Shown piece after piece: positions 1,424 through 55,557 of a stretch of 64,000 bases of DNA. Source of the stretch: an uncultured Thermoleophilia bacterium (GTDB lineage Bacteria > Actinomycetota > Thermoleophilia > Solirubrobacterales > 70-9); NCBI GenBank assembly GCA_963718595.1, contig OY970365.1:965994-1029993 (forward strand), read 5' to 3'. The translations under genes were made by a program, and so were the position numbers. The notes below the pieces were generated by a model. It saw nothing but the letters and a program-made list of their open reading frames with translations. It was not told the origin of the DNA and did not search any database. How positions within the stretch are numbered: the stretch's first letter is position 1; each line of letters begins with the position of its first letter.

Positions 1424-1432
1424 ATCTGAATG

Positions 1433-2119: not shown

Positions 2120-2152
2120 GGGGATGCGGCGGCCCGAGGTGCGCTCGCTACC

Positions 2153-2428: not shown

Positions 2429-2451
2429 CGCCGTATGCTCCCAGGCCAGGG

Positions 2452-4284: not shown

Positions 4285-4317
4285 GGGCGCAACCGTATCG
4301 CTCCGGGCGCGGTTGCT

Positions 4318-12252: not shown

Positions 12253-13085
12253 GCGGCCAGCCACTGCTGGAGGTCACCGACCTCGTCAAGCACTTCCCGA
12301 TCAAGCGCGGCATCCTGATCGACCGCGAAGTCGACCAGGTGCGAGCGGTCGACGGGATCAGCTTCAGGGTCGAGGCCGGGCAGACGCTGGGCCTGGTGGG
12401 AGAGTCCGGCAGCGGCAAGTCGACCGCCTGCCGCACCGTTCTCAACCTGGTCGCGCCGACCTCGGGCTCGGTCAAGTTCGAAGGCGAGGAGATCGCTGGG
12501 CTCGGGCGCCGGCAGATGCGGCCGCTGCGGCGGCAGATGCAGATGATCTTCCAGGACCCCTACGCCTCGCTGAACCCGCGCAAACGGATCGGGCAGATCG
12601 TCGGCGATCCGCTCAAGCGCCAGGACGTCGCCTCCGGCAGCGACCTCAAACGGCGGGTACAGGAGCTGCTCGACCGGGTCGGGCTCTCGCCCGAGCATTA
12701 CAACCGCTTCCCGCACGAGTTCTCCGGCGGCCAGCGGCAGCGGATCGGGATCGCGCGGGCGCTGGCGCTGGCGCCGAAGCTGATCTTCGCCGACGAGCCC
12801 GTCTCCGCCCTCGACGTCTCGATCCAGGCGCAGATCGTCAACCTGCTCGACGACCTCCAGGACGAGTTCGGGCTCACCTACGTCTTCGTCGCCCATGACA
12901 TCGGCGTCGTCCGCCACATCTCCGACCGGATCGCGGTCATGCACAACGGCAGGATCGTCGAGGAGGGCACGGCAGACCAGGTCTGCGAGCACCCCAGCGA
13001 TCCCTACACGAAGAAACTGCTGGCGGCGGTACCGGTGCCCGACCCCCGCGTGAGCCGGGCCCGGCGCGAAGGCGCCGCCACCTGA
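12249..13085 (+). CDS. ABC transporter ATP-binding protein (OppF/DppF-like)
   Basis: 278 aa. [29 protein letters not shown]. 4-nt overlap with the upstream ATPase gene. Confidence 0.9.
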   Translation: MSGQPLLEVTDLVKHFPIKRGILIDREVDQVRAVDGISFRVEAGQTLGLVGESGSGKSTACRTVLNLVAPTSGSVKFEGEEIAGLGRRQMRPLRRQMQMIFQDPYASLNPRKRIGQIVGDPLKRQDVASGSDLKRRVQELLDRVGLSPEHYNRFPHEFSGGQRQRIGIARALALAPKLIFADEPVSALDVSIQAQIVNLLDDLQDEFGLTYVFVAHDIGVVRHISDRIAVMHNGRIVEEGTADQVCEHPSDPYTKKLLAAVPVPDPRVSRARREGAAT

Positions 13086-13088
13086 CTC

Positions 13089-13135
13089 CCGAGTTGCCGG
13101 TTATTTTCGGATAGCGAGAAGAACCGGCAACTCGG
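13089..13135. terminator. 14-bp-stem hairpin CCGAGTTGCCGGTT-N19-AACCGGCAACTCGG, a solo copy of the central hairpin of the 0.7-kb repeat
   Basis: Lies 4 nt after the stop of the last ABC gene. The same arms occur at 1712-1754 and 42618-42660. Confidence 0.6.
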
Positions 13136-13156
13136 CGTCGAGGTTAGGCTGGGGTC

Positions 13157-23362: not shown

Positions 23363-24712
23363 ATGAAACGACATCGCCGCATAGCCGCCATCGTGGCCTC
23401 CCTGACGCTGCTTTTGGCCGCTGCCCCCGCGCAGGCGGAGATCGGCCTGGAGCCGGCGCGCGGCTTCGTGCCACGGCAGGTCGTGGTCAAGTTCGAGGGC
23501 GAGCGTTCGGCGCGGACGCTGGAGCTCCCGCGCGACGCCGACGTCCAGGAAACGACCGCGAGGCTGCGCGACAGGGCAGCCGTCGAGTACGCCGCCCCCA
23601 ACTTCATCGCCACCGCCTCGGCGGTCTCCCCCGCTCCCTTCACGATCCCCAATGACACCGGCGGCATCGACGGCGCCGCCGAAGCCAGCAGCTTCGGCGA
23701 CTGGACGCTGAAACAGTGGAACTTCCTGCCTTGGGAAGAAGCCCCGGGCTTGCGGATACCTGCCTCTCCAGGCGGGATCGACGCGATCGGCGCCTGGCAG
23801 AACCTGGCGGCGGCCGGCCGTCCCGGTGGCAAGGGAATCACGGTCGCCGTGCTCGACACCGGGGTCGCCTACCGCGAACAGGGCAGCACCTTCCTGCGCA
23901 GCCCCGACTTCGGCCCGGGGCAGTTCGTCAAAGGGTTCGACTTCGTCGATAACGACCGCCTGCCGCTGGACGAGAACGGGCACGGTACCCACGTCGCCGG
24001 CACGATCGCCGAGAAGACCGACAACGAGGTTGGACTGACCGGGATCGCCTTCAACGCGCGGCTGATGCCGATCCGCGTCCTCGACTCACAGGGACGCGGC
24101 GATGCCGCCGGAATCGCCAAGGGAATCCGCTTCGCGATCGCCCAGCAGGCGCAGGTGATCAACTTGAGCTTCAACTTCGGCTGTGGCAAGAAGGTGCCGG
24201 GGGTCGACGAAGCGCTGCGCGAGGCCTACGCGAAAGGGATCGTCGTCATCGCCTCCGCCGGCAACCTCGGCGCCGAGACCTGCGTCTCACCGCCGGCCAC
24301 CGGGCCGCGAGTGATCGCGGTCGGCGGCAGCACCGAGGGCGGCTGTCTCGGCGAGTACTCGCTGGCCGGAGCGGAGATCGACGTGCTGGCGCCGGGTGGC
24401 GGCATCCCGATCGCCGGCTGTCCCTCGATCTCGGCACGGCCGATCTACCAGGTGACGCTGCGGCCCGGGACCACCAACCTCTTCGGGATCCCCGTCACCT
24501 ACGTCGGCACCTCGATGGCGGCCGCGCACGTCTCCGGGGTTACCGCCTTGGTCCTCGCCAGCGGCGTCGTCAAGTCCGGTCTGAAGCCGAAAGGCCGGGT
24601 CGACACCGTCACCCGCCGCCTGCGCAAGACCGCCCGCAGCCTCGGCCTGGAACGGACCCAACAGGGCGCCGGCCTGATCGACGCGGCCGCCGCTACGGAA
24701 TCAACGCGGTGA
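23363..24712 (+). CDS. secreted subtilisin-like serine protease (peptidase S8)
   Basis: 449 aa with a signal peptide. Catalytic triad blocks VAVLDTGV, HGTHVAGT, GTSMAAAHVSG. Confidence 0.9.
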   Translation: MKRHRRIAAIVASLTLLLAAAPAQAEIGLEPARGFVPRQVVVKFEGERSARTLELPRDADVQETTARLRDRAAVEYAAPNFIATASAVSPAPFTIPNDTGGIDGAAEASSFGDWTLKQWNFLPWEEAPGLRIPASPGGIDAIGAWQNLAAAGRPGGKGITVAVLDTGVAYREQGSTFLRSPDFGPGQFVKGFDFVDNDRLPLDENGHGTHVAGTIAEKTDNEVGLTGIAFNARLMPIRVLDSQGRGDAAGIAKGIRFAIAQQAQVINLSFNFGCGKKVPGVDEALREAYAKGIVVIASAGNLGAETCVSPPATGPRVIAVGGSTEGGCLGEYSLAGAEIDVLAPGGGIPIAGCPSISARPIYQVTLRPGTTNLFGIPVTYVGTSMAAAHVSGVTALVLASGVVKSGLKPKGRVDTVTRRLRKTARSLGLERTQQGAGLIDAAAATESTR

Positions 24713-24722
24713 TCCGGGCGAC

Positions 24723-24798
24723 CTGACCAAGCAGGTCAAGGACGAGTGAGGGAGTGTGCTCCGCACATGACCGAGCGAGGACGCCGAGATGCGCCGGT
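24723..24798 (+). repeat. 76-bp intergenic repeat, copy 1
   Basis: ctgaccaagcaggtcaaggacgagtgagggagtgtgctccgcacatgaccgagcgaggacgccgagatgcgccggt. Differs from 28714-28789 at about 4 positions. Confidence 0.85.
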
Positions 24799-24807
24799 GC
24801 CGTGTCC

Positions 24808-25251
24808 TCAGCTGGTGCGGACGATGATCACTGAACACGGAGCATGGTGCGAGACGTTGTTCGGCACGCTGCCCATCAGGTAGCGGCGAGCGCCGGTCAT
24901 CCCCTTGTTGCCGACCACGATCAGATCGGCCTTGACCTGTTCGGCGACGTTGAGGATGGCGTCGGCGGGGTCGGCCTCGATCGGGTGGGTCTGGACCTCG
25001 ATCCCCGCTTTGCGCGCCTCGGCAGCGGCAGCCTCGAGAACGAGGTTGACGTCCTCGCGCGGGCCGATCTCGTGCTGGACGTCGGGCGGAGCCGCGCTCT
25101 GCTCGCCTTTGACGCGGCGCTCGGGCACGGGCGCATAGGCGCTGACGATGTTGAGCTGGGCCCCGAGGGCCTTCGCCAAGTCGACTGACTGGCGGACTGC
25201 CTCCCCGGCGGTCTCAGAGCCGTCGGTTCCAACCACGATTCGAGTGAACAC
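24808..25251 (-). CDS. universal stress protein (UspA family)
   Basis: 147 aa. MFTRIVVGTDGSETA...VVGNKGMTGARRYLMGSVPNNVSHHAPCSVIIV. Confidence 0.9.
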   Translation of the reverse strand: MFTRIVVGTDGSETAGEAVRQSVDLAKALGAQLNIVSAYAPVPERRVKGEQSAAPPDVQHEIGPREDVNLVLEAAAAEARKAGIEVQTHPIEADPADAILNVAEQVKADLIVVGNKGMTGARRYLMGSVPNNVSHHAPCSVIIVRTS

Positions 25252-25325
25252 GCCGCCTCCCTCTGCTCGGTCGCTGAACGCCGTTGATACTAAACGGGAT
25301 CGCCCGAGCGGGTGCGAGCGCCCGC

Positions 25326-25472
25326 TCAGCGCCGGTATTCCGCCGGCAGGCCGCGAAAGCCATCACCGAGGATTTCGGTCGGGGTGGTGCTGAGGCGGAC
25401 GATCGCGATCGCCATCGAGGCAACGAGGCAGACCACGAGCACGAGCATCCCCGCTTTCCAGATCCAGGGCAC
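25326..25472 (-). CDS. possible 48-aa single-pass membrane peptide
   Basis: Own translation (below the track size cutoff): VPWIWKAGMLVLVVCLVASMAIAIVRLSTTPTEILGDGFRGLPAEYRR. Only an ORF plus a hydrophobic helix; no other support. Confidence 0.25.
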   Translation of the reverse strand: MPWIWKAGMLVLVVCLVASMAIAIVRLSTTPTEILGDGFRGLPAEYRR

Positions 25473-25543
25473 GGCCGAACCCTAGAGGCTTCCCGGGGGC
25501 CGGTCGGCTCCCGGGCACCTTTGCCTCGGGCTATGGTGGGGCC

Positions 25544-26260
25544 ATGGGGCTGGAGCGTGTCGCCAACGGGGTCTGGTTGCTGCGCGGGGACTTCCGCGGG
25601 GCGATGAACATCTATTTCATCGAGGACGGCGACGGCGTCGTCCAGTTCGACGCCGGCACCAAGGCGATGCGCAAGCGGGCGCGGGCCGCGGCCGCCGAGC
25701 TCGGCGGCGTCAAGCAGTTGGTGCTGGGCCACGCTCACGCCGACCACCGCGGCACGGCTCCTTTTATGGGCGCGCCGATCCTCTGTCACCCCGACGAGGT
25801 CGCCGACGCCGAAAGCGACTCCTGCATGGCCCCGTACTGGCACCTCTCGGAGCTGCCCGTAAAGCCGATCCGGTGGCTCTACGAACGGGTGCTGCTGCCG
25901 CGCTGGGATGGCGGCGCCGTGAAGATCGACGGCACGGTCTCCGAGGGCGAGGAGGTCGCCGGTTTCGAGGTCCTGCACATGCCTGGGCACGCGCCGGGGC
26001 TGATCGCACTCTGGCGCGAGCGCGACCGGGTGGCGCTGGTCAGCGACGTCGCCTACCAGGTCGATTCCGCCCACCTCAAACCGCTGCCGCACGGCGAGGC
26101 CAGCGTCCCGCACCCCGCTTGGGCCTGGGATCACCCGAAGGCGCGCGAGTCGGTGCGGCGACTGGCGGCACTGGAGCCCGAAGTGGTCGCAACCGGGCAC
26201 GAGCAGCCGCTGCGCGGCCCCGGTCTGCGCGAGGTGCTCGAGCGGGCTGCCGAGAAGTAG
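25544..26260 (+). CDS. MBL-fold metallo-hydrolase
   Basis: 238 aa with the HxHxDH motif (GHAHADHRG). Confidence 0.85.
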   Translation: MGLERVANGVWLLRGDFRGAMNIYFIEDGDGVVQFDAGTKAMRKRARAAAAELGGVKQLVLGHAHADHRGTAPFMGAPILCHPDEVADAESDSCMAPYWHLSELPVKPIRWLYERVLLPRWDGGAVKIDGTVSEGEEVAGFEVLHMPGHAPGLIALWRERDRVALVSDVAYQVDSAHLKPLPHGEASVPHPAWAWDHPKARESVRRLAALEPEVVATGHEQPLRGPGLREVLERAAEK

Positions 26261-26323
26261 CGACGCCCGCGGCGCCCTGGAGGGTGGCATCGCGCGCCCG
26301 CCTGCCATAAGTTGCCTGCCCTG

Positions 26324-28696
26324 ATGATCGGGACCTATGCCTCGGCGGCGCTGATCTGTGGCGCCTCGCTGCTGGTCGGCCGCGCGCTGCTGACGCTGGC
26401 CGGCCGGCGTGCTTGGTCGTGGCTGGAGCCGGGAGTCGGGTTCGGCGCGATCATCACCGTCAGCGGCTTGCTGGCGCGGGCGCCCGGGCACGGCACCGGC
26501 GCCAGCCTCGGCCTCCTCGCGCTGGTCGCGGTCGCGGCGGCCATCGTCTTCCGCGAGCGCGGCTACGAGGTCGCGGGCGTGCTGCGGGCCGGCGCACCGG
26601 TTGCGATCGCGATCGCTCTCCTGCTGGCGATTCCGTTCGCGGTCAGCGGCCACTGGGGGCTGCTCGGCGTCGGCTTCAACAACGACCTCGGGCTCCACCT
26701 CGCCTGGGCGGAGTGGCTGCGCAGCGGCTTCGGCCCGACGCCGGAGCCGGGCTACCCGCTCGGTCCGCACGGGCTGGCGGTGGCGACCGCGGTGGTTCCG
26801 GGAATCAACCTCGCGCAGGCCTTCATCGGCGAGATCGTCGCGATCGGCGTCCTCACCGGGTTGACCGCGATCGGCGCCCTCGGCGAGATGCGACCGGCGC
26901 GGCGGGCTCTGGCGGCGGTGCTGGTGGCGGTGCCCTACCTGGCCGCCTCCTACTTCGCCCAGGCGGCCTTCAAGGAGACCGCCGAGGCGCTCTTCGTGCT
27001 CAGCACCGTCGTCTTCCTCCTGGCGCCGGGGTCGTTGCCGACGGGGTTCCGGCGGCGACTGCGCTTCGCGCTGCCGGTACTGGCGCTGCTCGGCGGCATC
27101 TTCTTCTCCTACAGCTTCGCCGGCGTCGCCTGGCCGGTCGCGATCGCCGCCCTCTGGAGCCTGACCCTGCCGGCGGTGCGACGGGCGCTGCGGCCGAAGG
27201 CGCTGCTGCGCTTCCTGCTGCGACCGCTGACGCTGCTGGCGCTGATCGTCCTGGCCGGGCTCGCGGTCCTGGCCCTGGTCGGCCCCTTCGGCTTCGCCGG
27301 CGCCTTCAACAAGGTCGCCGGCAGCAACACCTACGGCCCGGTCTCGCCGATCGAGACGCTCGGCGTCTGGTGGAGCTCCAACTATCGCCTCGACGCGGTC
27401 GGCAGCGCCATGCTGCCGGGCTTGGCCGGGGCGATCGCGGTGGCGGCGCTACTGGTCGGCGTTGCCTGGTGGGTGCAGCGGCGCGAAGTGACGGTCCCGA
27501 TCGCGCTCGGCGGCGCCGCCGTCCTCTACCTGGTTTCGCTGCCCTTCAGCGGCGACTACTCGCAGGCCAAGGCCCTGATGATCGCCGCCCCGCTGGCAAT
27601 GCTGGTCGCCGCCAAACCGCTGATCTGGGAGTTCCCCCGCCTCGCCCGCCGACGGGCCGATAACGGGCCTATATCTCCCGTTATCGGCCCGTCGGCGGGG
27701 GTTTTGCGGGTTGGGTGGGCGCTGCTTGGCATCGCCTTCGTCGGCGGATCGATCTATTCGAGCCTGCTGGTGCTGCGGGACGCGCCGGTGGCGCCGCCGG
27801 GGCACGGGTCGGAGCTGCAGGCGTTCCTGCCGATCGTGCGCGGCGAGCCGGTGCTCTACGCGGGTCAGGACCGCTACGCCGCCTACGAGCTGCTCGGCGC
27901 CGACACCCACGTGCCGCTGGTCGAGTTTCCCGACGAGGCGGTCTCGCCCAACCCGGAGAAGCCGTTCGACACCGGCGACGCCTACAGCCCGATCGACTTC
28001 GACTCGTTCTCGACCGGCACCCTCAACGCCTTCCCCTATGTGGTCACCAGCCGCGCCGCCTGGAACAGCGAGGCGCCGCCGAACTTCAAGCGCGTCGCCG
28101 CCACCCCCTCCTACGTCCTCTGGGAACGCGACGGCGACACCCCCGAGGACCGCCAGGTCCTGCTCGAGGGAACCGCCGCTGGCGCCTACGCCGGCTGCGA
28201 CTCGCCCGAGATCCGCATCCTGCTCGCCAACCCCGGGCACGCGACGCTCTTCCCCGACGCCGTGGTCGGCGGCAAAGCCGACTGGGACGCCGGCTCGATC
28301 CTCAGCCCCGGCAGCGAGACCTCGCAGACCCTGGACCTGCCCGCCGGGACCTGGAACCTCTCCCTCCAGTACTTCTCCCCCCTCGCCCTCACCCTCTCCG
28401 CCCCCGGCTTCCAAGAGCCCCTCCACGCCGCCCTCGACGGCCAACGCCCGAACACGATCAGCCTCGGCAACAACGGCCAGTTCTGGCCCGCGGGCCGCTA
28501 CGAGAGCGACGGCGGCAGCACCCGCTTCACGCTCTCAGTAGCCGACGCCACCACGATCCAAGACCTCACCGGCTACAGCGGCAAGGCCTACATCGGCGAA
28601 CTGGTCGCCGTCCCAGCCAAGCCTCACCGGACCGTGCCCCTATCCCAGGCCTGCAACTCCTGGATCGACTCTTACGAATCCGACGCGGCACCGTAG
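26324..28696 (+). CDS. large polytopic membrane protein with a C-terminal extracytoplasmic domain (GT-C-like glycosyltransferase candidate)
   Basis: Track ORF from TTG 26312; ATG 26324 is more likely. More than 12 hydrophobic helices in the first ~470 aa, then a ~300-aa soluble region. The family call is an inference from architecture only. Confidence 0.7.
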   Translation: MIGTYASAALICGASLLVGRALLTLAGRRAWSWLEPGVGFGAIITVSGLLARAPGHGTGASLGLLALVAVAAAIVFRERGYEVAGVLRAGAPVAIAIALLLAIPFAVSGHWGLLGVGFNNDLGLHLAWAEWLRSGFGPTPEPGYPLGPHGLAVATAVVPGINLAQAFIGEIVAIGVLTGLTAIGALGEMRPARRALAAVLVAVPYLAASYFAQAAFKETAEALFVLSTVVFLLAPGSLPTGFRRRLRFALPVLALLGGIFFSYSFAGVAWPVAIAALWSLTLPAVRRALRPKALLRFLLRPLTLLALIVLAGLAVLALVGPFGFAGAFNKVAGSNTYGPVSPIETLGVWWSSNYRLDAVGSAMLPGLAGAIAVAALLVGVAWWVQRREVTVPIALGGAAVLYLVSLPFSGDYSQAKALMIAAPLAMLVAAKPLIWEFPRLARRRADNGPISPVIGPSAGVLRVGWALLGIAFVGGSIYSSLLVLRDAPVAPPGHGSELQAFLPIVRGEPVLYAGQDRYAAYELLGADTHVPLVEFPDEAVSPNPEKPFDTGDAYSPIDFDSFSTGTLNAFPYVVTSRAAWNSEAPPNFKRVAATPSYVLWERDGDTPEDRQVLLEGTAAGAYAGCDSPEIRILLANPGHATLFPDAVVGGKADWDAGSILSPGSETSQTLDLPAGTWNLSLQYFSPLALTLSAPGFQEPLHAALDGQRPNTISLGNNGQFWPAGRYESDGGSTRFTLSVADATTIQDLTGYSGKAYIGELVAVPAKPHRTVPLSQACNSWIDSYESDAAP
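27649..27695. repeat. 47-nt palindromic element (subtype I) inside the membrane-protein CDS
   Basis: ccgacgggccgataacggg-cctatatct-cccgttatcggcccgtcgg: perfect 19-bp arms with an AT-rich loop. Translated in frame as RRADNGPISPVIGPS. Confidence 0.85.
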
Positions 28697-28713
28697 CGCG
28701 TCAAAAAAGTCGG

Positions 28714-28789
28714 CTGACCAAGCAGGTCAAGGACGACCGAGGGAGTGTGCTCCGCACATGACCGAGGGAGGACGCCGAGATGCGCCGGT
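28714..28789 (+). repeat. 76-bp intergenic repeat, copy 2
   Basis: ctgaccaagcaggtcaaggacgaccgagggagtgtgctccgcacatgaccgagggaggacgccgagatgcgccggt. Its last base is the first base of the desaturase stop codon. Confidence 0.85.
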
Positions 28790-29715
28790 CAGACGGCTTT
28801 CGCTTCGAGTCTCTCAGGGCTAACCCGGACGACGTCCCAAACCAGGTGCACCTTCTCCAGGCCATCGATGACGAGAGCCGAGATGTCCACCTGGTACCAG
28901 CGCAGCCCGTGCGTCGCCGAGGTCGGGAAGGCGTGGTGGCTGTTGTGGAAAGCCTCGCCCAGAGTCGGGATCGCGATCAGGGCGAGGTTGCGGGATTGGT
29001 CGGTGGTCTCGAACTCGCGCTTGCCGAAGACGTGGCAGAGCGAGTTGATGCTGTAGGTGAAGTGGTGGAGGACGAAGACGCGGACGAGGCCGCCCCAGAG
29101 CAGGCCGGTGAGGCCGGCGAAGAGGGTGCCGCCAATCGCCCAGCCGAGGAAGAAGGGGATCAGCAGGCCGAGGATCGCCCAGTAGATGAAGGTGCGGTCG
29201 ACCCAGGAGATGACCGGGTCTTTGAGCAGGTCCGGCGCGAAGCGCTCCTTGTTGCCCCGCTGAGTGTGGATGAAGAGCCAGCCCATGTGGGCGTGGAAGA
29301 GGCCGCGCATCGCCCCCGACCAGCCGTGGCCGTGGTCGACGTGGGGGCTGTGCGGATCGCCCTCCTGGTCGGAGAAGGCGTGGTGCTTGCGGTGGTCGGC
29401 GACCCAGGAGATGATCGGGCCCTCGATCGCGGCGGAGCCGAGGATCGCCAACAGCCCGCGCATCCAGTTCGAGGTCTTGAACGAGCGGTGGGTGAAGAGG
29501 CGGTGGAAGCCGACCGTGATCCCGAGCCCGGTCAGGAAGTACATCCCGAGGAAGAGGAAGACGTCGCTCCAGTGCAGGGCGCTGCCCCAGACCTGCCAGC
29601 CGGCGAAGCCGATCGCGAGGAACGGGATCAGCGTCACCAGGCCGGTGATGATCCGGTCGCGGGTCTCATTCTCGACCGGCTGAATATCTGAGGGAAGCGG
29701 CGCAGCGGTAGCCAT
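28789..29715 (-). CDS. membrane acyl-CoA/acyl-lipid fatty acid desaturase (DesA3-like)
   Basis: 308 aa. Three His boxes HRLFTH, HRKHH, HNSHH. Confidence 0.9.
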   Translation of the reverse strand: MATAAPLPSDIQPVENETRDRIITGLVTLIPFLAIGFAGWQVWGSALHWSDVFLFLGMYFLTGLGITVGFHRLFTHRSFKTSNWMRGLLAILGSAAIEGPIISWVADHRKHHAFSDQEGDPHSPHVDHGHGWSGAMRGLFHAHMGWLFIHTQRGNKERFAPDLLKDPVISWVDRTFIYWAILGLLIPFFLGWAIGGTLFAGLTGLLWGGLVRVFVLHHFTYSINSLCHVFGKREFETTDQSRNLALIAIPTLGEAFHNSHHAFPTSATHGLRWYQVDISALVIDGLEKVHLVWDVVRVSPERLEAKAV

Positions 29716-29790
29716 GGTCCGATCATACGCGTCGTACCAGAAGGGCGCCCTAATTTCGCCGGCACCGACGCGGCGCTAAGGTGCGCGGCG

Positions 29791-31005
29791 GTGCCGTTCG
29801 CAAATCCCGCCAGCCTGCGCCGAGAGATCGAGGCCCGCCTGCCCGACCGCCCCTTCGTGGTCGAGTTCTGGGACGGCTCGAAGCTGGCCTCGACGACCGG
29901 CGACGGGCCCACCTTCAGCGTCCGCTCACCCCGCGCCGCCGCCCACGTTCTGCGCGCGCCCGGTCAGCTCGGCCTCGGCCGCGCCTACGTCAGCGGCGAG
30001 CTCGAGGTCGACGACATCGACGCCGTGATCGAGCTGCTCGACGGCTGGCAGCCGCCGGCGCTCGACGGCGCCGACAAGCGGGCGCTGCTGCTCGGCGCGG
30101 TCCGCGCCGCCGGCCTGACCCCACCGCCGTCGCGCCCCGACGCCGAGCTGCGCCCCAGCGGCCGCCGCCACTCCAAGGAGCGCGACGCCCGCGCCGTGCG
30201 CCACCACTACGACGTCTCCAACGAGTTCTTCGAGCTCTTCCTCGGCGAGACGATGGTCTACAGCTGCGCGATCTGGAACAAAGGCGCGACGACGCTGAAG
30301 GAGGCCCAGGAAGAGAAGCTGGAGACGGTCGCCCGCAAGCTCGAGCTGAAGGAGGGCGACCGCGTCCTCGACGTCGGCTGCGGGTGGGGTGGCTTTCCAC
30401 TCTGGGCCGCGACCAAGCACGGCGCCAACGTCGTCGGCATCACTCTCTCCCCGCCCCAGGCCGAAAAGGCGCGCCGGCGGGCCGAGGAGGCGGGCGTCGG
30501 CGACCGCGTCGACATCCGCGTCATGGACTACCGCGACATCGCCACCAGCGGCGAGAAGTTCGACGCGATCGCCAGCATCGGCATGGTCGAGCACGTCGGC
30601 GCCTCGCAGATCGAGGTCTACGCCGAGACCCTCGCCTCCGTGCTCGAACCCGGCGGGCGCCTGCTCAACCACGGCATCACCCGCCTGCGCCATACCGACG
30701 GCGAGGCCGGCGCCTTCTCCGAGCGCTACGTCTTCCCCGACGCCGCGCCGCTGCACCTCTCGCGCAATCTGCTGGCGCTGGAACGAGCCGGCTTCGTCAC
30801 CCACCACGTCGAGGACTACGCGCCCGACTACGCCGAGACCCTGCGCCACTGGTACACCAACCTCGACGACAACATCGAGGAGGCGACGCGGCTGGCCGGC
30901 GAGGAACGGATCCGCGTCTGGCGCCTCTACCTGCGCGCCGCGAGGAACGGGTTCCTCTCGGGCTTCACCAACATCTACCAAGCCCGCTGCTCTAAGTCCG
31001 CCTGA
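29791..31005 (+). CDS. cfa: cyclopropane-fatty-acyl-phospholipid synthase family methyltransferase
   Basis: 404 aa. HYDVSNEFFELFLGETMVYSCAIW and SAM motif VLDVGCGWGG. Confidence 0.9.
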   Translation: MPFANPASLRREIEARLPDRPFVVEFWDGSKLASTTGDGPTFSVRSPRAAAHVLRAPGQLGLGRAYVSGELEVDDIDAVIELLDGWQPPALDGADKRALLLGAVRAAGLTPPPSRPDAELRPSGRRHSKERDARAVRHHYDVSNEFFELFLGETMVYSCAIWNKGATTLKEAQEEKLETVARKLELKEGDRVLDVGCGWGGFPLWAATKHGANVVGITLSPPQAEKARRRAEEAGVGDRVDIRVMDYRDIATSGEKFDAIASIGMVEHVGASQIEVYAETLASVLEPGGRLLNHGITRLRHTDGEAGAFSERYVFPDAAPLHLSRNLLALERAGFVTHHVEDYAPDYAETLRHWYTNLDDNIEEATRLAGEERIRVWRLYLRAARNGFLSGFTNIYQARCSKSA

Positions 31006-31023
31006 CCGGCGCGTCAGCCGAAC

Positions 31024-31689
31024 TTAGAGGGGGAAGCCTGAGGTGACGTCCTCGATCGCCCAGTCGGCGCCGGCCTGACGCTGTTCCTCGACTGAGTAGG
31101 CGCCGGTGGCGACGCCGACGACGCGAATGCCGGCGCCGTGGCAGGCGCTGACATCGCGCGGAGTGTCGCCGACGCCGATCGTGGCATCGAGCTCGAGCGG
31201 GGAGCCGGCGACCTCTCCCCCGCGCTCGATCCCCCTGCGGGTCAGCTCGGTGCGATCGCGGGCGTCGGAGCCGTAGCCGCCGAAGCTGAAGAAGCGGTTG
31301 AGGCCGGCGCGGGCGAGCTTGATGTGGGCGGCGGCTTCGATGTTGCCGGTGACGATCCCCAGCAGCACGCCCTGCTCGGTCAGCCGCGGCAGGATCTGCT
31401 CGATCCCCGGCATCAGCTCGTAGCCGTCGGACTCGGCGACGGCCGCCTCGAGCTGGCCGAGATAGGCCGCGATCGCCTGCCCCCGCTCGACCTCGCTGCC
31501 GTCGCGACCGACCACCTCGCGGAAGATGATCTCGACGATTTCCGGGTCGGTCATCCCCGCCCGCGTATGTTCGGAGACGTTGGCGTCGACACCGTGCAGC
31601 TCACGGAAGGCGCGCTGCCAGGCCACCGCGCCGGCCCCGCCGGTCACCAGCAGGGTGCCGTCGATGTCGAAGAGAACCGCCTTGATCAC
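31024..31689 (-). CDS. HAD-superfamily hydrolase (phosphoglycolate phosphatase-like)
   Basis: 221 aa. Motif I LFDIDGTL, motif IV GVGDTPRD. Confidence 0.85.
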   Translation of the reverse strand: MIKAVLFDIDGTLLVTGGAGAVAWQRAFRELHGVDANVSEHTRAGMTDPEIVEIIFREVVGRDGSEVERGQAIAAYLGQLEAAVAESDGYELMPGIEQILPRLTEQGVLLGIVTGNIEAAAHIKLARAGLNRFFSFGGYGSDARDRTELTRRGIERGGEVAGSPLELDATIGVGDTPRDVSACHGAGIRVVGVATGAYSVEEQRQAGADWAIEDVTSGFPL

Positions 31690-31698
31690 CGGGCGAAC

Positions 31699-33159
31699 CT
31701 AGCGGGCGGCGATGTGCTGTGAGAAGAGGCCGATCTTGCGCGGTGCGCGAGTGGCCCGTGCCTTCGCCTTGCGCGGCTTGCCGGTGCCGCTGAGTGCGGC
31801 GGTGTAGGCGCCGCCCTCGCCGTCGACGCGAAGGATCGCTTCCTTGGCGCCGAAGCTGGTCGGCGTGAAGCGGACCCGGACCAGGCACTTGCCACCGCGG
31901 CCAAGTGCGACGCCGGTGCATTCGTCTCCGGTGACCTGGAACTGGCCGAGGTTGGCGCCGACGATCGAGACCGAGCCCATCTCGACCATGGTCTCGCCAT
32001 CGTTGCGAACGACGAAGGTCTGGGCAGAGCTGCGGGTGCCGTTGGCGACGGCGCCGAAATCGAAGGCCCCGGGCGCCATCGTCACCGCGGGCGCCATGCC
32101 CTCGCCTTCGAGGAAGACCATCGTGCCGGCGTCCCCGTCGCCGAAGAGGGCAAAGCGCGCGCGCTTGGGGCCGGAGTCCTGCGGGGCGAAGCGGACATGG
32201 GCGGTGCAGCTGCTGCCGGGCATCAGTTCGCTGGCGGTGCAGTTCTCGTCGAGCAGGCGGAAGCTGCCGGAGTCGCCACCGGCGACCACGGCGATGAAGA
32301 AGGCGGCCGGGAGGTTGCCCGAGTTGGCGATCTTGATCGTGCGCACAGAGCTCTGCGAGCCGACCGTGATGGCTCCGAAGTCAAATGGGTTGCGCAGCGC
32401 CGCCACGACCGGGCCGCCGCCTTCGCCGCTCACCGTGGCGGTGAAGACGGAGCCGTTGACGACCGCGCGCACCTGCGCCGTGTAGGTGAGGAGGTCGTGC
32501 GGGTTGAAGTTGACCTGGACGTAGCAGGAGTCAGCGGGGTTGAGCAGGCCGCCCCAACAGTTGCTGTTGCCGGTCCAGAAGACGCTGGTGTCGCCCTGGA
32601 TTTCGAGGTTGTTGATCTGCGCCGGCGCGGCGCCGGTGTTGGTCAGCTGCAGGTAGGTCGAGGCCGTGTCGCGGTTGATCCGCTGCACACCGAAGTCGTA
32701 GCTGCCAGGGCTGAAGGCGAACTGCGGTTCAACCGCTTTGCCGGAGACCGGGAAGGATTCGGCGCTGCGTCCGCCCTGGAAGGTGACGACCATCGTCGTT
32801 TCCTTGAGGCCGGCGCTGGAAGGCTTCAGACCGACCTGGAAGCCGCACTTCTGCCCTTCGGCGAGGTAGCCGCAGCTGGAGCCGTTGGCGAAGAACTCGC
32901 CCACTTCGGCGCCTTCGAGCGTGACCTTGTCGATGTTGGCGTCTTCACCGGGGTTGGTGATCTCGACTTCGATCGCGGCGCCGTTGTACCCGGTCGTCGT
33001 GGTCGGGACCACGATCGGCGCAGGGCTCACCGTCAGCGGTGAGCCGGCGCCTTCCATGGGCGCTGCTAGGGCGCGCGCGGGGATCAGCGCGGCGGCGGTG
33101 AGAAGGAGGACGAGGATCGCGGAGGCGAGCAGCTTCGGCTCGGCTAGAGGCTTGTTCAT
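31699..33159 (-). CDS. secreted protein with repeated choice-of-anchor-D / ASH-like beta-sandwich domains
   Basis: 486 aa with a signal peptide. About four repeats of the pattern FDFG...V...N.G......I.G.....F......C.......C.V.V.F.P. Confidence 0.7.
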   Translation of the reverse strand: MNKPLAEPKLLASAILVLLLTAAALIPARALAAPMEGAGSPLTVSPAPIVVPTTTTGYNGAAIEVEITNPGEDANIDKVTLEGAEVGEFFANGSSCGYLAEGQKCGFQVGLKPSSAGLKETTMVVTFQGGRSAESFPVSGKAVEPQFAFSPGSYDFGVQRINRDTASTYLQLTNTGAAPAQINNLEIQGDTSVFWTGNSNCWGGLLNPADSCYVQVNFNPHDLLTYTAQVRAVVNGSVFTATVSGEGGGPVVAALRNPFDFGAITVGSQSSVRTIKIANSGNLPAAFFIAVVAGGDSGSFRLLDENCTASELMPGSSCTAHVRFAPQDSGPKRARFALFGDGDAGTMVFLEGEGMAPAVTMAPGAFDFGAVANGTRSSAQTFVVRNDGETMVEMGSVSIVGANLGQFQVTGDECTGVALGRGGKCLVRVRFTPTSFGAKEAILRVDGEGGAYTAALSGTGKPRKAKARATRAPRKIGLFSQHIAAR

Positions 33160-33242
33160 GCCGCGTCATCGACCCGGCAGGCGCCCACTTGAGCAGTGGA
33201 TCCGAAAAATCTCGACTTTTCGGTAGATCCGCGCCTGCTGCG

Positions 33243-34283
33243 CTAGTGCTCGAGCAGGTCCCGCTGGCTGAGCACGTAGAGCAAACCGAGCGCCGGCAGC
33301 ACCAGCAGCGCCGCGATCACGAAGACAACGAAGACCACGTCGAGGGTCGAGTCGGGCGCCGCTGCCTGGTCGATCCGCAGGCTGGTCGGCAGCAGGTACG
33401 GAAACTGCGCCACCGCCCAGCCCCAAATCACCGCGACCACGGCCCCCGCCGCCAACGGCCGCAAAAACACCCCGCCGACGGGCCGATTTGTCGCCTCACC
33501 GTTGACTTTTCGGCCCATCGACGAGAGGAGGAGGGCGATGGCGCCGAGGCCGCAGATGGCGCTGAGGATGACGAGGGGCAGGGCTTGGTCGGTGAGGCGG
33601 TCGAAGAGGTAGCGGGCTTCGGCGTGGAGCTCGACCAGGCCGAAGGCGGCGGCGGCCCCGGCGACGGCGCCGGCACCCAGCGCCCGCCGCGCAAAGTAGC
33701 GCTCGAGGTCGGCCTCGCCGGCGCGGCGGGCGTCGCCGACCAGGAAGACCGCGGAGAGGTAGGCGCCGGTGGCGACGAACATCGCCCCGATCAACAGCGG
33801 CAGCGGCGCCAGCCAGCTCGAGAAGGCGTCGCCGGTGCCGTCTGCGGGGACGTTGCCGCTGGCGATCGCGCCGACCACGGTGCCCATGAAGAACGGGGTC
33901 AGGACCGAGGAGAGGGCGAAGAGGGCGCCGAAGCTGCGCTGGCCGGTCAGCGTCGCCACCGTTTTGCGGAAGGCGAAGCCGGCGCCGCGCAGGACGATCC
34001 CCAGCGCCGCCAGCGCGATCGGCACGTAGAGGATGCTGAAGATGGCGCTGAAGGCGGGCGGGAAGGCGGTCCAGAGAACGACGAGGATGAAGATCAACCA
34101 GACGTGGTTGGCCTCCCAGACGGGGGTCAGCGAGCGCTGGATCAGCGCCCGCGGTTTCGCCCCCCTCTCGTCGCCGCCGGCGATGAGATCCCAGAAGCCG
34201 CCGCCGAAGTCGGCGCCGCCGAAGAGCGCGTAGAAGGTCGCCCCAACCCAGAGGATCGCCGCGGCGGCGTCGGCCTTGCTCAC
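33243..34283 (-). CDS. cydB: cytochrome bd ubiquinol oxidase subunit II
   Basis: Last 346 codons of track ORF 33243..36740, from GTG (cac 34281-34283) overlapping the cydA stop (GTGA). ILWVGATFYALFGGADFGGGFWDL... is typical of CydB. Confidence 0.9.
   Translation of the reverse strand: MSKADAAAAILWVGATFYALFGGADFGGGFWDLIAGGDERGAKPRALIQRSLTPVWEANHVWLIFILVVLWTAFPPAFSAIFSILYVPIALAALGIVLRGAGFAFRKTVATLTGQRSFGALFALSSVLTPFFMGTVVGAIASGNVPADGTGDAFSSWLAPLPLLIGAMFVATGAYLSAVFLVGDARRAGEADLERYFARRALGAGAVAGAAAAFGLVELHAEARYLFDRLTDQALPLVILSAICGLGAIALLLSSMGRKVNGEATNRPVGGVFLRPLAAGAVVAVIWGWAVAQFPYLLPTSLRIDQAAAPDSTLDVVFVVFVIAALLVLPALGLLYVLSQRDLLEH
33475..33520. repeat. palindromic element (subtype II) inside cydB
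   Basis: ccgacgggccgatttgtcgcctcaccgttgacttttcggcccatcg. Translated on the minus strand as SMGRKVNGEATNRPVG. Confidence 0.8.
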
Positions 34284-35665
34284 GGGGCCGCCTCCTCGGG
34301 CGGCGCGTACGGCGTGCCCTCGGGTTCGGCCAGGCCTTCGCGCCAGCGCCGAGACATCCCACGCAGGACCAGGACCGCGGTCGTCCCCAGGGCGGTGTAG
34401 ACGAGCAGGATCAGGCCGAAGGCGAACCAGATCCCGCTCGCCTCGGTGACCGCTTCCTCGGTCCGCATGTAGCCCTGCACGATCCATGGCTGCCGCCCTA
34501 CCTCGGTAACGATCCAGCCGCACCACAGGGCCAGGATCGCGCCGATGCCGGAGACCGCGACCGCCCGCAGGAACCAGGGCGTATGCGGGATGTCCCGCCG
34601 TTTCCACCAGACCCAGGCCAGCCACACGGCCAGCCCCATCAGCGCCGTCCCGACCCCGACCATGAGGTCGAAGGAGAGGTGCAGCAGCGTGTTCGCCGGC
34701 GGCTGTTCGTCCTCGGGGATGTCGTTCAGGCCGGTGACCACGGTGTCGGCGCTCCACCCGACCAGGAACGAGTCGAGGTCGGGGATCGGGATCCCGAACT
34801 TGACCCCGTCGGAGGTGCAGAAGCCGCCGACCCACTCGGTCTGGTTGGGGCCGGTCTCCTGGATGCACTCCATCGCCGCGAACTTGGCCGGCTGGTGGTC
34901 GGCGACTTCGCGGGCGGCGGTGTCGCCGACGAAGAGCTGGATCGGGGTTGCGATGCAGGCGATCGTCAGCGGGATCAGCAGACCCAGCCGGTGCAGGCGG
35001 TCGCGGCGGCCCTTCAGCATCCCCACCGCGTAGATCGAGGCGACGAGGAAGCCGGTGACCATGTAGGCGGCGAGGATCATGTGCGGGACCTCGTAGCCGA
35101 AAGCCGGGTTGAAGAGGACCTTGAGCGGCTCGGTGTCGATCACCTCGCCGGCGCCGTTGAGGGTGAAGCCCTGCGGCTGGTTCATCCAGGCGTTGGCGGC
35201 GACCACCGAGGCGGCGCCGCCGATGCCGGTGATCACCATCGGCACCCCGGACCAGAAGTGAGCCCAGCCGCCGAGCCGCCTCCAGCCGTAGATATAGATC
35301 GCGAGGAAGATCGCCTCGAGAAAGAAGAAGATGCCCTCGATCGCGAAGGCGATCCCGAAGACGGAGCCGAAGCGGTCCATGAACTCGGGCCAGAGCAGGC
35401 CGAACTCGAAACTGAGCACGGTGCCGGTGACGGCGCCGACCGCGAAGGTGACCGCCATCGCCTTCGACCAGCGCCGGGCCAGCTCCATGGCGTCGTCGTC
35501 GCCGCGCTTGAGGCCGAGGTAGTTGGCGAGCAGGATCGTCGCCGGCAGCGCCACCCCCAGACAGGAGAGGACGATGTGAAAGGCGAGCGTGAACGCCATC
35601 AGCTCGCGGGCGGCGAGCAGATTCGACTCCGACGCCGCCAGGGGGAGCGCGTCGAAGGGGATCAT
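34280..35665 (-). CDS. cydA: cytochrome bd ubiquinol oxidase subunit I
   Basis: 461 aa. FHIVLSCLGVALP..., WSKAMAVTFAVGAVTGTVLSFEFGLLWP, FAIEGIFFFLEAIFLAIYIYGW. Confidence 0.95.
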   Translation of the reverse strand: MIPFDALPLAASESNLLAARELMAFTLAFHIVLSCLGVALPATILLANYLGLKRGDDDAMELARRWSKAMAVTFAVGAVTGTVLSFEFGLLWPEFMDRFGSVFGIAFAIEGIFFFLEAIFLAIYIYGWRRLGGWAHFWSGVPMVITGIGGAASVVAANAWMNQPQGFTLNGAGEVIDTEPLKVLFNPAFGYEVPHMILAAYMVTGFLVASIYAVGMLKGRRDRLHRLGLLIPLTIACIATPIQLFVGDTAAREVADHQPAKFAAMECIQETGPNQTEWVGGFCTSDGVKFGIPIPDLDSFLVGWSADTVVTGLNDIPEDEQPPANTLLHLSFDLMVGVGTALMGLAVWLAWVWWKRRDIPHTPWFLRAVAVSGIGAILALWCGWIVTEVGRQPWIVQGYMRTEEAVTEASGIWFAFGLILLVYTALGTTAVLVLRGMSRRWREGLAEPEGTPYAPPEEAAP

Positions 35666-35674
35666 GCGCCGAGC

Positions 35675-37312
35675 CTACTCGCCGCGGCGGGCGTTGCGGT
35701 AGTGCCGGATCAGCGCGTTGGTGGAGCTGTCGTGGGCGAGCTTCGGCTCGGCGTCGGCCTCGAGCTCGGGGATGATCGCGACGGCCAGCACCTTGCCCAG
35801 CTCGACGCCCCACTGGTCGAAGGAATCGATCCCCCAGATCGCGCCCTGGGTGAAGACGCTGTGCTCGTAGAGAGCGACCAGGCTGCCGAGGGTCTCCGGG
35901 GTGAGGCGCTCGGCGAGGATCGTGTTCGAGGGCCGGTTGCCCTCCATCACCCGGTGCGGCACGACCGCCTCCGGCGTCCCCTCCGCCCGCACCTGCTCGG
36001 CCGTTTTGCCGAAGGCGAGCGCCTCGCCCTGGGCGAAGACGTTGGACATCAGCAGGTCGTGGTGGCGCCCGAGCGGATTCAGCGAGTGGGCGAAGCCGAT
36101 GAAGTCGCAGGGGATCAGCTTCGTGCCCTGGTGGATCAGCTGGTAGAAGCTGTGCTGGCCGTTGGTCCCCGGCTCGCCCCAGTAGATGGCGCCGGTCTCG
36201 TAGTCGACGTGGGTGCCGTCGAGGGTGACGTGCTTGCCGTTGGACTCCATCGTCAGCTGCTGCAGGTAGGCGGGGAAGCGGTGCAGGTACTGGTCGTAGG
36301 GGAAGACACCGCTGGTTTGGGCACCGAAGAAGTCGCCGTACCAGACCGAGAGCAGTCCCATCAGCATCGGCAGGTTGGAGCCGGTCGGAGCCGTCTGAAA
36401 GTGCTCGTCGACGGCGTGGAAGCCGGCCAGCATCTCGGCGAACTGGGCCGGGCCGATCGCCAGCATCGTCGAGAGCCCTACGCCTGAGTCCATCGAGTAG
36501 CGGCCCCCCACCCAATTCCAAAAGCCGAACATGTTGTCGGTGTCGATCCCGAACTCGGCTACGCCCTCGGCGTTGGTGGAGACGGCGACGAAGTGCTTGG
36601 CGACCGCGGCCTCGTCGCCGCCGAGCCCGGCCAGAAGCCAGTCGCGAGCCGACTTGGCGTTGGTCATCGTCTCCAGCGTCGTGAACGTCTTCGAGCAGAT
36701 CACGAACAGGGTCTGCTCGGGATCGAGATCGCGCGTGCACTCGGCGAAGTCGGTGCCGTCGACGTTGGAGACGAAGCGGAAGCTCAGCTCGCGGCGGCTG
36801 TAATGGCGCAAAGCCTCGTAGGCCATCACCGGGCCGAGGTCGGAGCCGCCGATGCCGACGTTGACGACGTTGCGGATCGGCTTACCCGTATGCCCGACCC
36901 ACTCACCGGAGCGCACCCGCTCGGCGAAGGCGCCCATGCGGTCGAGCGTCTCGTGCACCTGCTTGACGACGTCGACGCCGTCGACCACCAGCGAGCGGTT
37001 GCGCGGCATCCGCAGCGCCACGTGCAGCACGGCGCGGTCCTCGGAGACGTTGATGTGGTCGCCGCGGAACATCGCTTCGCGACGCTCGGCGACGCCGCGT
37101 TCGCGGGCCAGCTCGCCGAGCAACAGCAGCGTCTCGTCGGTGATCCGGTTCTTCGAGAAGTCGAGGCGCAGACCGGCGGCGTCGGCGACCAGGCGCTCGC
37201 CGCGCTCGGCGTCGGCGGCGAACAAATCACGAAGATGCGTGCCGCTGACGTCCTCGTAGTGAGCCTGCAGCGCCGCCCAGGCGGGCAGCTCCCGCAGCGG
37301 CGCCCCGGTCAC
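35675..37312 (-). CDS. pgi: glucose-6-phosphate isomerase
   Basis: 545 aa. [29 protein letters not shown] start overlaps the tal stop. Confidence 0.95.
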
Positions 37313-38408
37313 CCGGTTACGACGCCGCGCTTGGAGGCGATCGAGCCGAGCAGCTCTTCCCAGGACTTGACGAAGCTCGCCTTGCCCTCCTCCTGGAGGC
37401 GGGCCGCGAGGGCGGCGACGTCGATGCCGGCGTCGGCGAACTCCTGCAGGACCGCCTCGGCGTTGCCGCCGTCCTTGGGGAGGAGGTCGCCGACCTCACC
37501 GTGCTGGGAGAAGGCGACCAGGGTCGGCTCGGGCATCGTGTTGACCGTGAACGGCGAGGCCAGCTCTTCCACGTACATCGTGTCGGAGGCGTCGGGGTCC
37601 TTGGTCCCGGTCGAGGCCCAGAGCAGGCGCTGGGCCCGAGCGCCCTCGTTGAGCAGGCGCTGCCAGCGGTCAGACTCGAGCAGCTCGTGGTAGGCGCGGA
37701 AGGCGCGGCCGCCGATCGCGACCCCGAGCCGGTTCTTCAGCTCGGCCGGCACCGTCTCGGCGATCGCGACGTCCCAGCGGCTGATGAAGAGCGAGGCAAC
37801 CGAGCCGACGTTGGGATCGAGCCCGGCCTCGATCCGCCGTTCGACCCCCTTCATGTATGCGTCGGCGGCGCCGAGGTAGTGCTTGTCGTCGAACAGCAGG
37901 GTGACGTTGACGGGGACGCCGGCGAAGATCGTCTCCTCGATCGCCACCTGCCCGGCCTCGGTTCCTGGGATCTTGATGAAGAGGTTGTCGCGCTCGGCCT
38001 TGGCGTGCAGCGCCGCCGCCTGCGCGATCGTCGCCTCGGCGTCGTCGGCCAGCAGCGGCGAGACCTCCAGCGAGGCCCAGCCGTCGACGCGGTCGGTGCG
38101 CTCGTGGATCGGGGCGAAGAGGTTGGTGGCGTCGCGCAGGTCGGCGATCGCCAGCTCGAAGAAGATCTTCTCGTCGGCGTTGGCGCCGACGCGGTCGCTG
38201 TCGTCATCGGTGCCGCCGAGCTCGGAGATCTGCTCGTCGTAGGCGTCGCCGGCGCCGATCGCCTTGTCGAAGATCGTCGGGTTCGAGGTCAGCCCGGTGA
38301 CCGAGAGCTCGTCGATGTAGCCCTGTAGGACGCCCTCGGCGAGCATCGGCCGGGTGATGTTGTCGAGCCAGAGGCTCTGGCCCAGTTCGTGCAGTCGCTC
38401 GGTTGCCT

Positions 38409-46075: not shown

Positions 46076-46117
46076 CTTCCGAGTTTGGGGCCCCCATAGG
46101 GACACCAAACTCGGAAG
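46076..46117. terminator. bidirectional terminator-like hairpin CTTCCGAGTTTGG-N16-CCAAACTCGGAAG
   Basis: 13-bp perfect stem between convergent genes (45555..46073 + and polX -). Arms begin CCGAGTT and the loop carries CATAG, as in the 13089/1712/42618 hairpins. Confidence 0.65.
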
Positions 46118-55064: not shown

Positions 55065-55108
55065 GAGGCTGCGGATTCTAGGAGCGGGCGCTCAGCGGCA
55101 GCGGGTCC

Positions 55109-55555: not shown

Positions 55556-55557
55556 CG

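Follow-up and report, generated by a model that had tools for sequence, protein, structure and literature searches.

We analysed a 64,000-nt stretch of DNA (the window; GC of 0.65–0.72) from contig OY970365.1 of GenBank assembly GCA_963718595.1, an uncultured Thermoleophilia bacterium, in which four protein-coding genes each carry in frame a copy of the same small DNA palindrome. The elements were read directly from the sequence. Each consists of a 47-nt palindrome (47-mer) flanked by a G and a C, and the cores between the arms fall into two subtypes. The four copies and their host genes are as follows.

27648–27696 (47-mer 27649–27695): copy 1, a 49-nt palindrome with the type I core CGGGCCTATATCTCCCG, in frame in the membrane-protein open reading frame (ORF)
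33474–33522 (47-mer 33475–33521): copy 2, type II core, partly decayed, in frame in cydB
54116–54164 (47-mer 54117–54163): copy 3, type II core GTCAACC-ATG-GGTTGAC, in frame in ileS
57808–57856 (47-mer 57809–57855): copy 4, type I core, in frame in the FAD/Fe-S oxidase gene
26312–28696, plus strand: host gene 1, a hydrophobic membrane protein of 794 aa, start codon uncertain
33243–34283, minus strand: host gene 2, cydB, cytochrome bd oxidase subunit II, 346 aa (PF02322, E 1.6e-61)
51834–55064, minus strand: host gene 3, ileS, isoleucyl-tRNA synthetase, 1076 aa
57137–60004, minus strand: host gene 4, an FAD/Fe-S oxidase resembling D-lactate dehydrogenase, about 955 aa, start approximate

A preliminary description of this DNA had placed three of the copies exactly here and ended copy 2 one base short of its true end at 33521; its two core subtypes, type I and type II, are confirmed. 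The reading frame runs through the element without a stop in all four host ORFs, and the peptides quoted there are correct: the element is translated as RRADNGPISPVIGPS in the membrane protein, MGRKVNGEATNRPVG in CydB, DGPKSQPMVDKSAHRP in IleS and DGPKRGDIGPKSARR in the oxidase. The identities given to CydB, IleS and the oxidase hold (the oxidase has FAD_binding_4, FAD-oxidase_C, Fer4 and CCG domains), whereas the 794-aa product called a membrane protein matched no Pfam family.

The arms of copy 1 are perfect over 23 nt, and its single-stranded DNA folds at -36.3 kcal/mol (z -10.5). Copy 3 folds at -26.6 kcal/mol (z -7.8), copy 4 has a decayed inner stem (z -4.5), and copy 2, with one mismatch in its right arm (TCGGCCCATCGA), folds weakly (z -1.7). 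The window contains the pattern GGGCCGA-N15-35-TCGGCCC four times, where 0.14 occurrences would be expected and no shuffle out of 100 gave as many as four, and three of the four copies rank among the longest short-range inverted repeats of the window. A covariance model of 123 family members matched exactly these four sites at 46–70 bits (69.8, 52.1, 66.3 and 60.6 bits for copies 1 to 4); the next-best match, at 23.7 bits, is a different palindrome (13085–13139).

Distribution and anatomy of the palindrome family

A pattern scan of 185,579 species-representative genomes, in which the pattern demanded exact arms, matched at least 117 stretches, and all those listed are metagenome-assembled genomes (MAGs) labelled Solirubrobacterales, Thermoleophilia, Actinomycetes or Actinomycetota. 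The matches listed and the window together hold at least 125 copies in at least 60 genomes, both figures being approximate, and the copy statistics below rest on 125 of them (119 or 123 in some analyses). The palindrome measures 47 nt in 120 of these copies, 48 nt in four and 45 nt in one. Many of the carrier genomes among the matches listed are chromosomes of 2.5–3.1 Mb. We consider it probable, at about 0.82, that the four window copies are members of a lineage-specific dispersed palindrome family in small-genome Solirubrobacterales, of the same kind as repetitive extragenic palindromic (REP) sequences, Rickettsia palindromic elements (RPEs) and transposable elements of the miniature inverted-repeat type (MITEs).

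Rfam contains no RNA family at the four sites, and blastn gave no match to the element in plasmid and phage collections. In IMG/VR, only two contigs were found (L123, 5293–5336, and L124, 5340–5383; loci outside the window are numbered with an L), and these share one 44-nt hairpin. This hairpin has the exact 12-nt arms of the family around an unrelated interior containing AAGGAG, a ribosome-binding site, and ATG, and it may be a translation-start hairpin in a viral or proviral contig of ~68% GC.

Comparison of the copies revealed a conserved unit with the structure G-CCGAYGGGCCGA-WWW-6 bp variable stem-~5 nt loop-stem'-WWW-TCGGCCCRTCGG-C. In the position matrix of the listed copies, the 47-mer is preceded by G in 118 of 119 cases and followed by C in 114 of 119; the conserved unit is in fact 49 nt, as a refinement of the 47-nt palindrome of the preliminary description. 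Outside this unit conservation drops at once, the left flank being just C-rich and the right flank G-rich. The outer stem of 12–13 bp (G-CCGAYGGGCCGA) is invariant in the sample, and inside it lies a 3-nt A/T segment that is paired in approximately two thirds of the copies and shows many T:T and A:A mismatches. The inner stem of 6 bp varies in sequence and keeps its pairing, and the loop of about 5 nt is often ATATA-like or CCWGG-like. The arms are almost never solitary: in ~1 Mb of sampled DNA they occur as inverted pairs at a fixed spacing of 23 nt, exact lone half-sites are all part of degenerate or nested copies, and lone half-sites with one mismatch look like chance.

Analysis of the inner stem indicated that its pairs covary. 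The Watson-Crick share is 57–91% across the stem and 87–91% at the three outermost pairs, with three to four common pair types at each pair; at pair 16:32, for example, 62 copies have GC and 47 have CG. The covariation score of the alignment is 0.306, against 0.115 for shuffled partners (0 of 500 shuffles reached the observed value) and at most 0.081 for slid partners. G:T accounts for only ~1–5% of the cells at inner-stem pairs and is not enriched among the non-Watson-Crick cells, and the mismatches at position 5:43 are balanced (C:A in 16 copies, T:G in 15), suggesting that the symmetry is kept at the DNA level and not by selection on one RNA strand. A longer hairpin reaching into the flanks was considered and rejected, as pairing there is no better within copies than between copies, either position by position or in duplex energy (p = 0.12–0.48). 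Perfect inner stems are found in 25% of the intragenic copies vs 41% of the other listed copies, a difference that is not significant (p = 0.19).

A considerable share of the family lies in genes, with 32 of the 119 listed copies (27%) in frame inside an ORF and a coding signal in the same frame on both sides. Three frames are used, reading RRA[DE]...IGPSA in 14 listed copies, ADGP...SA[HR]R in 12 and PMGR...RPIG in six. As had been proposed, the conserved entity is the DNA palindrome and not a peptide, the same palindrome being read in these three frames in different proteins. For 34 further listed copies the heuristic gene call places a stop codon within 80 nt, mostly at a gap of 1–15 nt and typically of 3–9 nt, and convergent stops flank 10 of the 34. 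A weak preference for A at -9/-8 and T at +55/+56 results largely from stop codons lying 7–9 nt away. An attC-like AAC...GTT signature or orienting A/T extension was also rejected: the extension shows no strand bias, and the pattern seen in all four window copies is not general. In one sampled stretch (L055, OY969122.1), an ORF of 1167 aa at 1011–4514 on the minus strand contains two in-frame elements, at 1868–1914 and 4190–4236. Judged by eye, its product resembles a DnaE/DnaE2-type DNA polymerase, which we give as a candidate identity.

Filled and empty alleles at the host sites

Among orthologues that are 78–97% identical, each of the four proteins (IleS, CydB, the oxidase and the membrane protein) occurs in two forms, one carrying the segment and one lacking it at the same position. 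In every filled form the segment is encoded by this palindrome, in one of three frames across the different proteins, and filled alleles persist in dozens of species. The net insert relative to empty alleles is 42–51 nt overall and a multiple of 3. A length divisible by three, as expected in the preliminary description, holds for this net difference and not for the element itself (47/49 nt).

In IleS, 22 of 120 orthologues (80–93% identity) read ...AADGPxSxxxxxxxSAHRPVF... at the site, and the empty forms are short (DREPGG-FPV, DGGPAN-AFRV and similar). The empty ileS alleles show a gap of 51 nt in L118 and L126 and of 48 nt in L120, and the IleS segment aligns to a gap in the solved structure 8c8w. 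In CydB, a count of the site motif gave 84 of 120 orthologues with (M/T)GR(K/N)-x7-NRP(I/V)G between two hydrophobic segments, and the clearly empty class of 332–334 aa reads LLRGGRRPLRPL or similar and is 14 residues (42 nt) shorter. In a CydB model of low confidence (mean predicted local distance difference test score 50.5), the insert at residues 256–270 is almost wholly coil between two predicted helices, which is only suggestive of an inter-helix position. The oxidase is filled in 76 of 120 orthologues, and the 44 empty ones all have one site length (IF-AGSP-xEALV), with a net difference of 17 residues (51 nt). For the membrane protein, the syntenic orthologues are filled in the window (794 aa) and L122 (790 aa) and empty in L121 (776 aa); by alignment of the site the net insert is 42 nt, although the whole proteins of 794 and 776 aa differ by 18 residues.

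The closely related genome GCA_036265715.1 (L118 and L121; ~90–94% nucleotide identity) was compared with window positions 24000–38000 and 51500–57000. A syntenic stretch of 28.6 kb, in which the window has three elements, is free of them in this genome. It is empty at ileS, cydB and the membrane-protein gene, carries the oxidase copy and keeps an ileS insert of a second palindrome family, described below, indicating that the element content varies site by site between close genomes. Because the same arms encode different residues in different proteins, the segments represent added DNA and not ancestral protein. On the evidence of sequence comparison, then, the inserts are added DNA and the host genes are functional genes. 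The preliminary description had named two cases that would speak otherwise, ancestral protein sequence and host pseudogenes, and neither occurred: filled and empty orthologues exist at the same sites, and the ORFs are intact with the signal of GC content at third codon positions (GC3) in frame on both sides.

Analysis of the cores revealed turnover between genomes. Pairs of cores from one genome have an identity of 0.68, as against 0.42 for pairs from different genomes (p = 3e-38; 60 genomes among the matches listed). All seven sampled copies of one genome are TACGTCAAG-N5-CTTGACGTA-like, and all four of another are CGGGAGATATAGGCCCG-like. JGI 3300085758, whose syntenic DNA is ~91–95% identical to the window (~93% protein identity), carries the element in ileS, in cydB and in the membrane-protein gene, each time with a type I core. 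The membrane-protein core is the same as in the window, whose ileS and cydB copies are of type II instead, suggesting that the core can be replaced while the arms stay. On the gene trees, the number of Fitch changes against the random expectation is 17 vs 20.6 for IleS, 15 vs 30.8 for CydB and 6 vs 36 for the oxidase, and presence at the ileS site is nearly random on the gene tree. The ileS genes of L125 and L126 are ~97% identical and differ by a 51-nt gap at the element site. The divergent block spans ~100 nt with sharp edges, comprising ~40 nt of upstream coding sequence, the element and ~12 nt downstream, in near-identical surroundings; from the alignment, this difference looks like the exchange of a short allelic block by homologous recombination.

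Nested composites, in which one element is exactly centred in another, were found at seven loci (L017, L024, L028, L033, L048, L095 and L098). The composite measures 107 nt, with outer arms 30 nt off on each side. None of the seven loci is orthologous to another, so that repeated, independent nesting at orthologous sites was rejected as an explanation. Two genomes account for a concentration of composites, DASTTQ (three of three sampled copies) and OY970241 (two of two). Insertion aimed at the hairpin apex and the spread of a composite subfamily as a unit would explain them equally well. The nested geometry implies an added unit of ~60 nt, namely the 47-mer with 6–7 loosely conserved bases on each side, in agreement with the C-rich and G-rich flanks of the family and with the 20-codon non-homologous blocks in cydB and the membrane protein.

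Other palindromes were observed in these genomes. The ileS gene of the window contains a second one at 52927–52967 on the minus strand (CGTGGTTCC-TTACCGGCC-TCAGG-GGCCGAAAA-GGAACCACG), read in frame as RGSFSAPEAGKEPR, which is unrelated to the main family and whose insert is missing from about half of 120 IleS orthologues. L118 and L119 have its arms at the orthologous ileS site, and L121 has them between genes (6810–6848). Given this second in-frame ileS palindrome, in-frame insertion in these genomes involves at least two families of palindromes. The ileS gene of L126 (JGI 3300044815) has a 45-nt AT-rich in-frame palindromic insert ~2110 nt into the alignment (CGTTCC-C-CTGTTC-CTTTT-CCACG-AATGA-CGTGG-ATAAC-GAACAG-C-GGAACG), located in the same IleS loop as the second insert of the window and absent from the ~97% identical L125. 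A third family, with the arms GAGTTGCCGGTTA...TAACCGGCAACTC, occurs in the window at 1712–1754 and 13089–13135, both intergenic and at or just past the upstream stop; the latter copy owes its 23.7 bits with the main-family model to a similar architecture. At 46076–46117 there is a palindrome with 19-bp arms (CTTCCGAGTTTGGGGCCCC / GGGACACCAAACTCGGAAG), preceded by TGA and followed by TCA, a reverse-complement stop. To judge from its sequence, it may lie between convergent gene ends, and it may belong to a further hairpin-repeat or terminator family.

Proposed origin and spread of the elements

Several observations weigh against reading the family as mobile. Mobility itself is something that we infer and did not observe. 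Neither the flanks nor the filled/empty comparisons show a target-site duplication or a clean insertion boundary, so the target duplication that the preliminary description had suggested looking for is not visible; the flanking G and C stand in inverted, not direct, relation, and farther positions have no copy-specific relation. The ORFs between paired copies are all ordinary genes with no transposase among them, no transposase is among the 25 Pfam families that recur most often in 70 neighbouring ORFs, and the ~1 Mb of sampled DNA contains no half-site pair spaced like the ends of an insertion sequence. The closest filled/empty pair, L125 and L126, resembles a block swap and neither a fresh insertion nor a clean excision. 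The invariance of the arms in the sample is partly circular, since the search pattern required exact arms; independent, indirect support for their constancy comes only from the arm-encoded residues, which are kept in orthologues identified by protein search. Coding calls were made by a heuristic of GC3 plus open frame and not by gene prediction. Some observations also speak against a terminator role: the copies were rejected as canonical intrinsic terminators, none of the four in the window matching the consensus, a run of at least three T or A within 16 nt occurs in only about a quarter of the listed copies, and the A/T runs of coding copies show no coding-strand bias (7 vs 6).

We propose the following mechanism for the family. 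The element would enter as added DNA without target duplication, probably as a hairpin moved by a trans-acting enzyme that recognizes the invariant arms. Copies survive, as the sampled sites show, either in short intergenic spacers immediately past stop codons or in genes where the net change is a multiple of 3 and the frame across the element is stop-free, the element being translated there as a loop insert of 14–17 net residues. Pairing would be kept at the DNA level and not by selection on RNA structure, either through a hairpin intermediate or through intrastrand templated correction of quasi-palindromes, which is an established mechanism of quasi-palindrome mutagenesis. Filled alleles would pass between related lineages as short blocks via homologous recombination, and the similarity of cores within a genome would arise from recent amplification or from replacement at existing sites. 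Intergenic copies probably act in addition as terminator-like or mRNA-end hairpins, and intragenic copies are most likely tolerated passengers.

A more specific version of the dispersed-family reading, possible but rather doubtful, is a REP element, or the related REPIN, moved as a single-stranded hairpin by a transposase like the REP-associated tyrosine transposase (RAYT; HUH, tyrosine). It would account for the lack of target duplication, the hairpin architecture and the DNA-level symmetry, for the location at gene 3' ends and the genome-specific sequence populations, and for the intragenic copies, as reported for tagged REPs (PMC3733652). It fits less well with the absence of an unpaired GTAG or CGTC tag (CGTC here lies within the stem) and with a unit of 49 nt, which exceeds the 20–40 nt given for REPs; the REP survey (PMC3733652) is also without mention of Actinobacteria. 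At the sampled loci, no RAYT-type (tyrosine/HUH) transposase was found between paired copies or in the 25 top neighbouring Pfam families.

A bolder reading, which we regard as unlikely, is that the invariant arms are the site for a lineage-specific enzyme that inserts hairpins preferentially at the apex of existing copies and so overwrites their cores. It would jointly explain the 107-nt composites, the genome-specific cores and the core replacement at ileS and cydB. If true, the palindromes would be self-homing and would evolve in concert, a type of system for which no description exists among REPs or RPEs.

Two other explanations appear improbable, each with only a slim chance of being correct. 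The sites could have been selected by the host and arisen in place, as terminators, mRNA stabilizers or sites for chromosome-organizing proteins, the intragenic copies being functional as well through pausing or attenuation. The intergenic copies do begin 1–15 nt past stop codons, often where two genes converge, the hairpins have very high stability, the arm sequence is maintained across approximately 60 or more genomes, and the arm-encoded residues stay constant at orthologous sites while the cores change. An origin in place cannot account for the occurrence of 49-nt units that are identical and share asymmetric cores (for example CGGGAGATATAGGCCCG) at unrelated loci and in different genomes, nor for copies inside ileS, cydB and other genes in three frames; most copies have no adjoining T-tract, and the close relative GCA_036265715.1 is without three of the four window copies and has intact genes. 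The second such explanation is a classical MITE, cut and pasted by the transposase of an insertion sequence that shares the 12–13 bp terminal inverted repeats. Terminal inverted repeats, short length, presence/absence polymorphism and genome-specific subfamilies would all agree with it, but there is no target-site duplication and the G...C flanks are inverted, the entire element is palindromic with a covarying interior that an element defined by terminal repeats alone does not need, and no distant arm pairs bracket a gene in the ~1 Mb examined.

That the segments are ancestral protein loops with incidental palindromy is scarcely credible: the inserts do occupy loop positions of variable length, filled alleles outnumber empty ones for CydB and the oxidase in the sample and Fitch parsimony gives "filled" at the midpoint root of the oxidase tree, but the same 12-nt arms encode three frame-dependent peptides in unrelated proteins, most listed copies are intergenic, close relatives have empty alleles and the IleS structure 8c8w has a gap at the site.

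As a lineage-specific dispersed family, these palindromes extend the RPE/REP phenomenon, in which selfish palindromes are translated inside essential proteins, to high-GC free-living-type Actinomycetota. They also provide an unusually clean natural data set: across dozens of species, a given loop of IleS, CydB or another conserved enzyme exists as filled and as empty alleles, and the constraints at the nucleotide level are known. It makes directly testable how proteins tolerate or use insertions of 14–17 residues, how palindromes are kept up and whether spread proceeds by transposition or recombination. In practice, the elements will confuse gene-tree and indel-based analyses of Solirubrobacterales MAGs and may affect the assembly and annotation of Solirubrobacterales genomes. 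The interest of the family lies in the new lineage, the high in-frame share, the clean comparative material and the puzzling constancy of the arms beside core turnover and nesting.

Comparison with known systems

RPEs are dispersed palindromes, many of them in frame in housekeeping genes, whose host ORFs are kept and which show presence/absence among orthologues (PMC10969869, PMC3733652). The present family behaves alike, with in-frame copies at four of four sites in the window and 32 of 119 in the family as listed, intact ORFs, and filled and empty orthologues. RPEs are, however, ~100–150 bp long, occur in AT-rich obligate intracellular alphaproteobacteria and encode a conserved peptide per family (PMC10969869, PMC3733652), whereas the element here has 47–49 nt, three frames, three peptide types and a covarying inner stem, and its hosts are ~70% GC free-living-type Actinomycetota. 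The RPE-like in-frame insertion put forward in the preliminary description is thus supported as an analogy, and the resemblance would be one of behavior rather than of family membership, no kinship in sequence with RPEs being expected.

The REPs tagged with GTAG or CGTC are small hairpins that mostly lie within 20 bp of ORF 3' ends, between unidirectional or convergent genes, and a subset lies wholly inside ORFs in several phyla, including tRNA synthetase genes and DnaE2 (PMC3733652). One of their ends bears the GTAG or CGTC unpaired; the stems measure 5–13 bp, a short tail is usual, and head-to-head dimers are common; CGTC REPs have no identifiable transposase (PMC3733652). The survey that describes them (Di Nocera et al. 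2013, PMC3733652) does not mention Actinobacteria. The family described here is also found near ORF 3' ends with an intragenic subset. It differs in that its ends are fully paired (G...C, CCGA...TCGG) with the CGTC/CATC motif inside the stem, and in having a two-tier stem of 22 pairs and occurring as single units or 107-nt nested composites.

REPINs are reportedly inverted REP doublets linked to a RAYT gene, as Bertels and Rainey are said to have described in 2011 for the REPIN-RAYT system. They form genome-specific hairpin populations with conserved stems, more variable loops and no target duplication. The present family shares the genome-specific hairpin populations, the conserved stems with more variable loops and the lack of target duplication, and it differs in that neither a RAYT gene nor a doublet structure was found at the sampled loci.

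ERIC, BOX and the Anabaena MITEs are non-autonomous repeats that can be translated in host ORFs; they exceed 100 bp and have defined terminal repeats and target duplications, often deriving from an identifiable insertion sequence (PMC10969869). The family is comparable in its terminal inverted repeats of 12–13 nt and its translation within ORFs, and it departs from them in being smaller and in showing no target duplication. From intrinsic terminators the window copies differ by having no T-tract directly after the hairpin, and from DNA uptake sequences (DUS; also uptake signal sequences, USS) by having arms that are paired and inverted, not mainly single motifs.

Our literature searches turned up no publication that describes palindromic repeats in Solirubrobacterales or Thermoleophilia; in-frame insertion by REP-type repeats is not unique to Rickettsia (PMC3733652). 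Intragenic REPs in other phyla are already known (PMC3733652), and what is new is this family in this lineage. It is a member of neither the RPEs nor the tagged REPs, and constitutes, within a known kind of small palindromic repeat, a new family.

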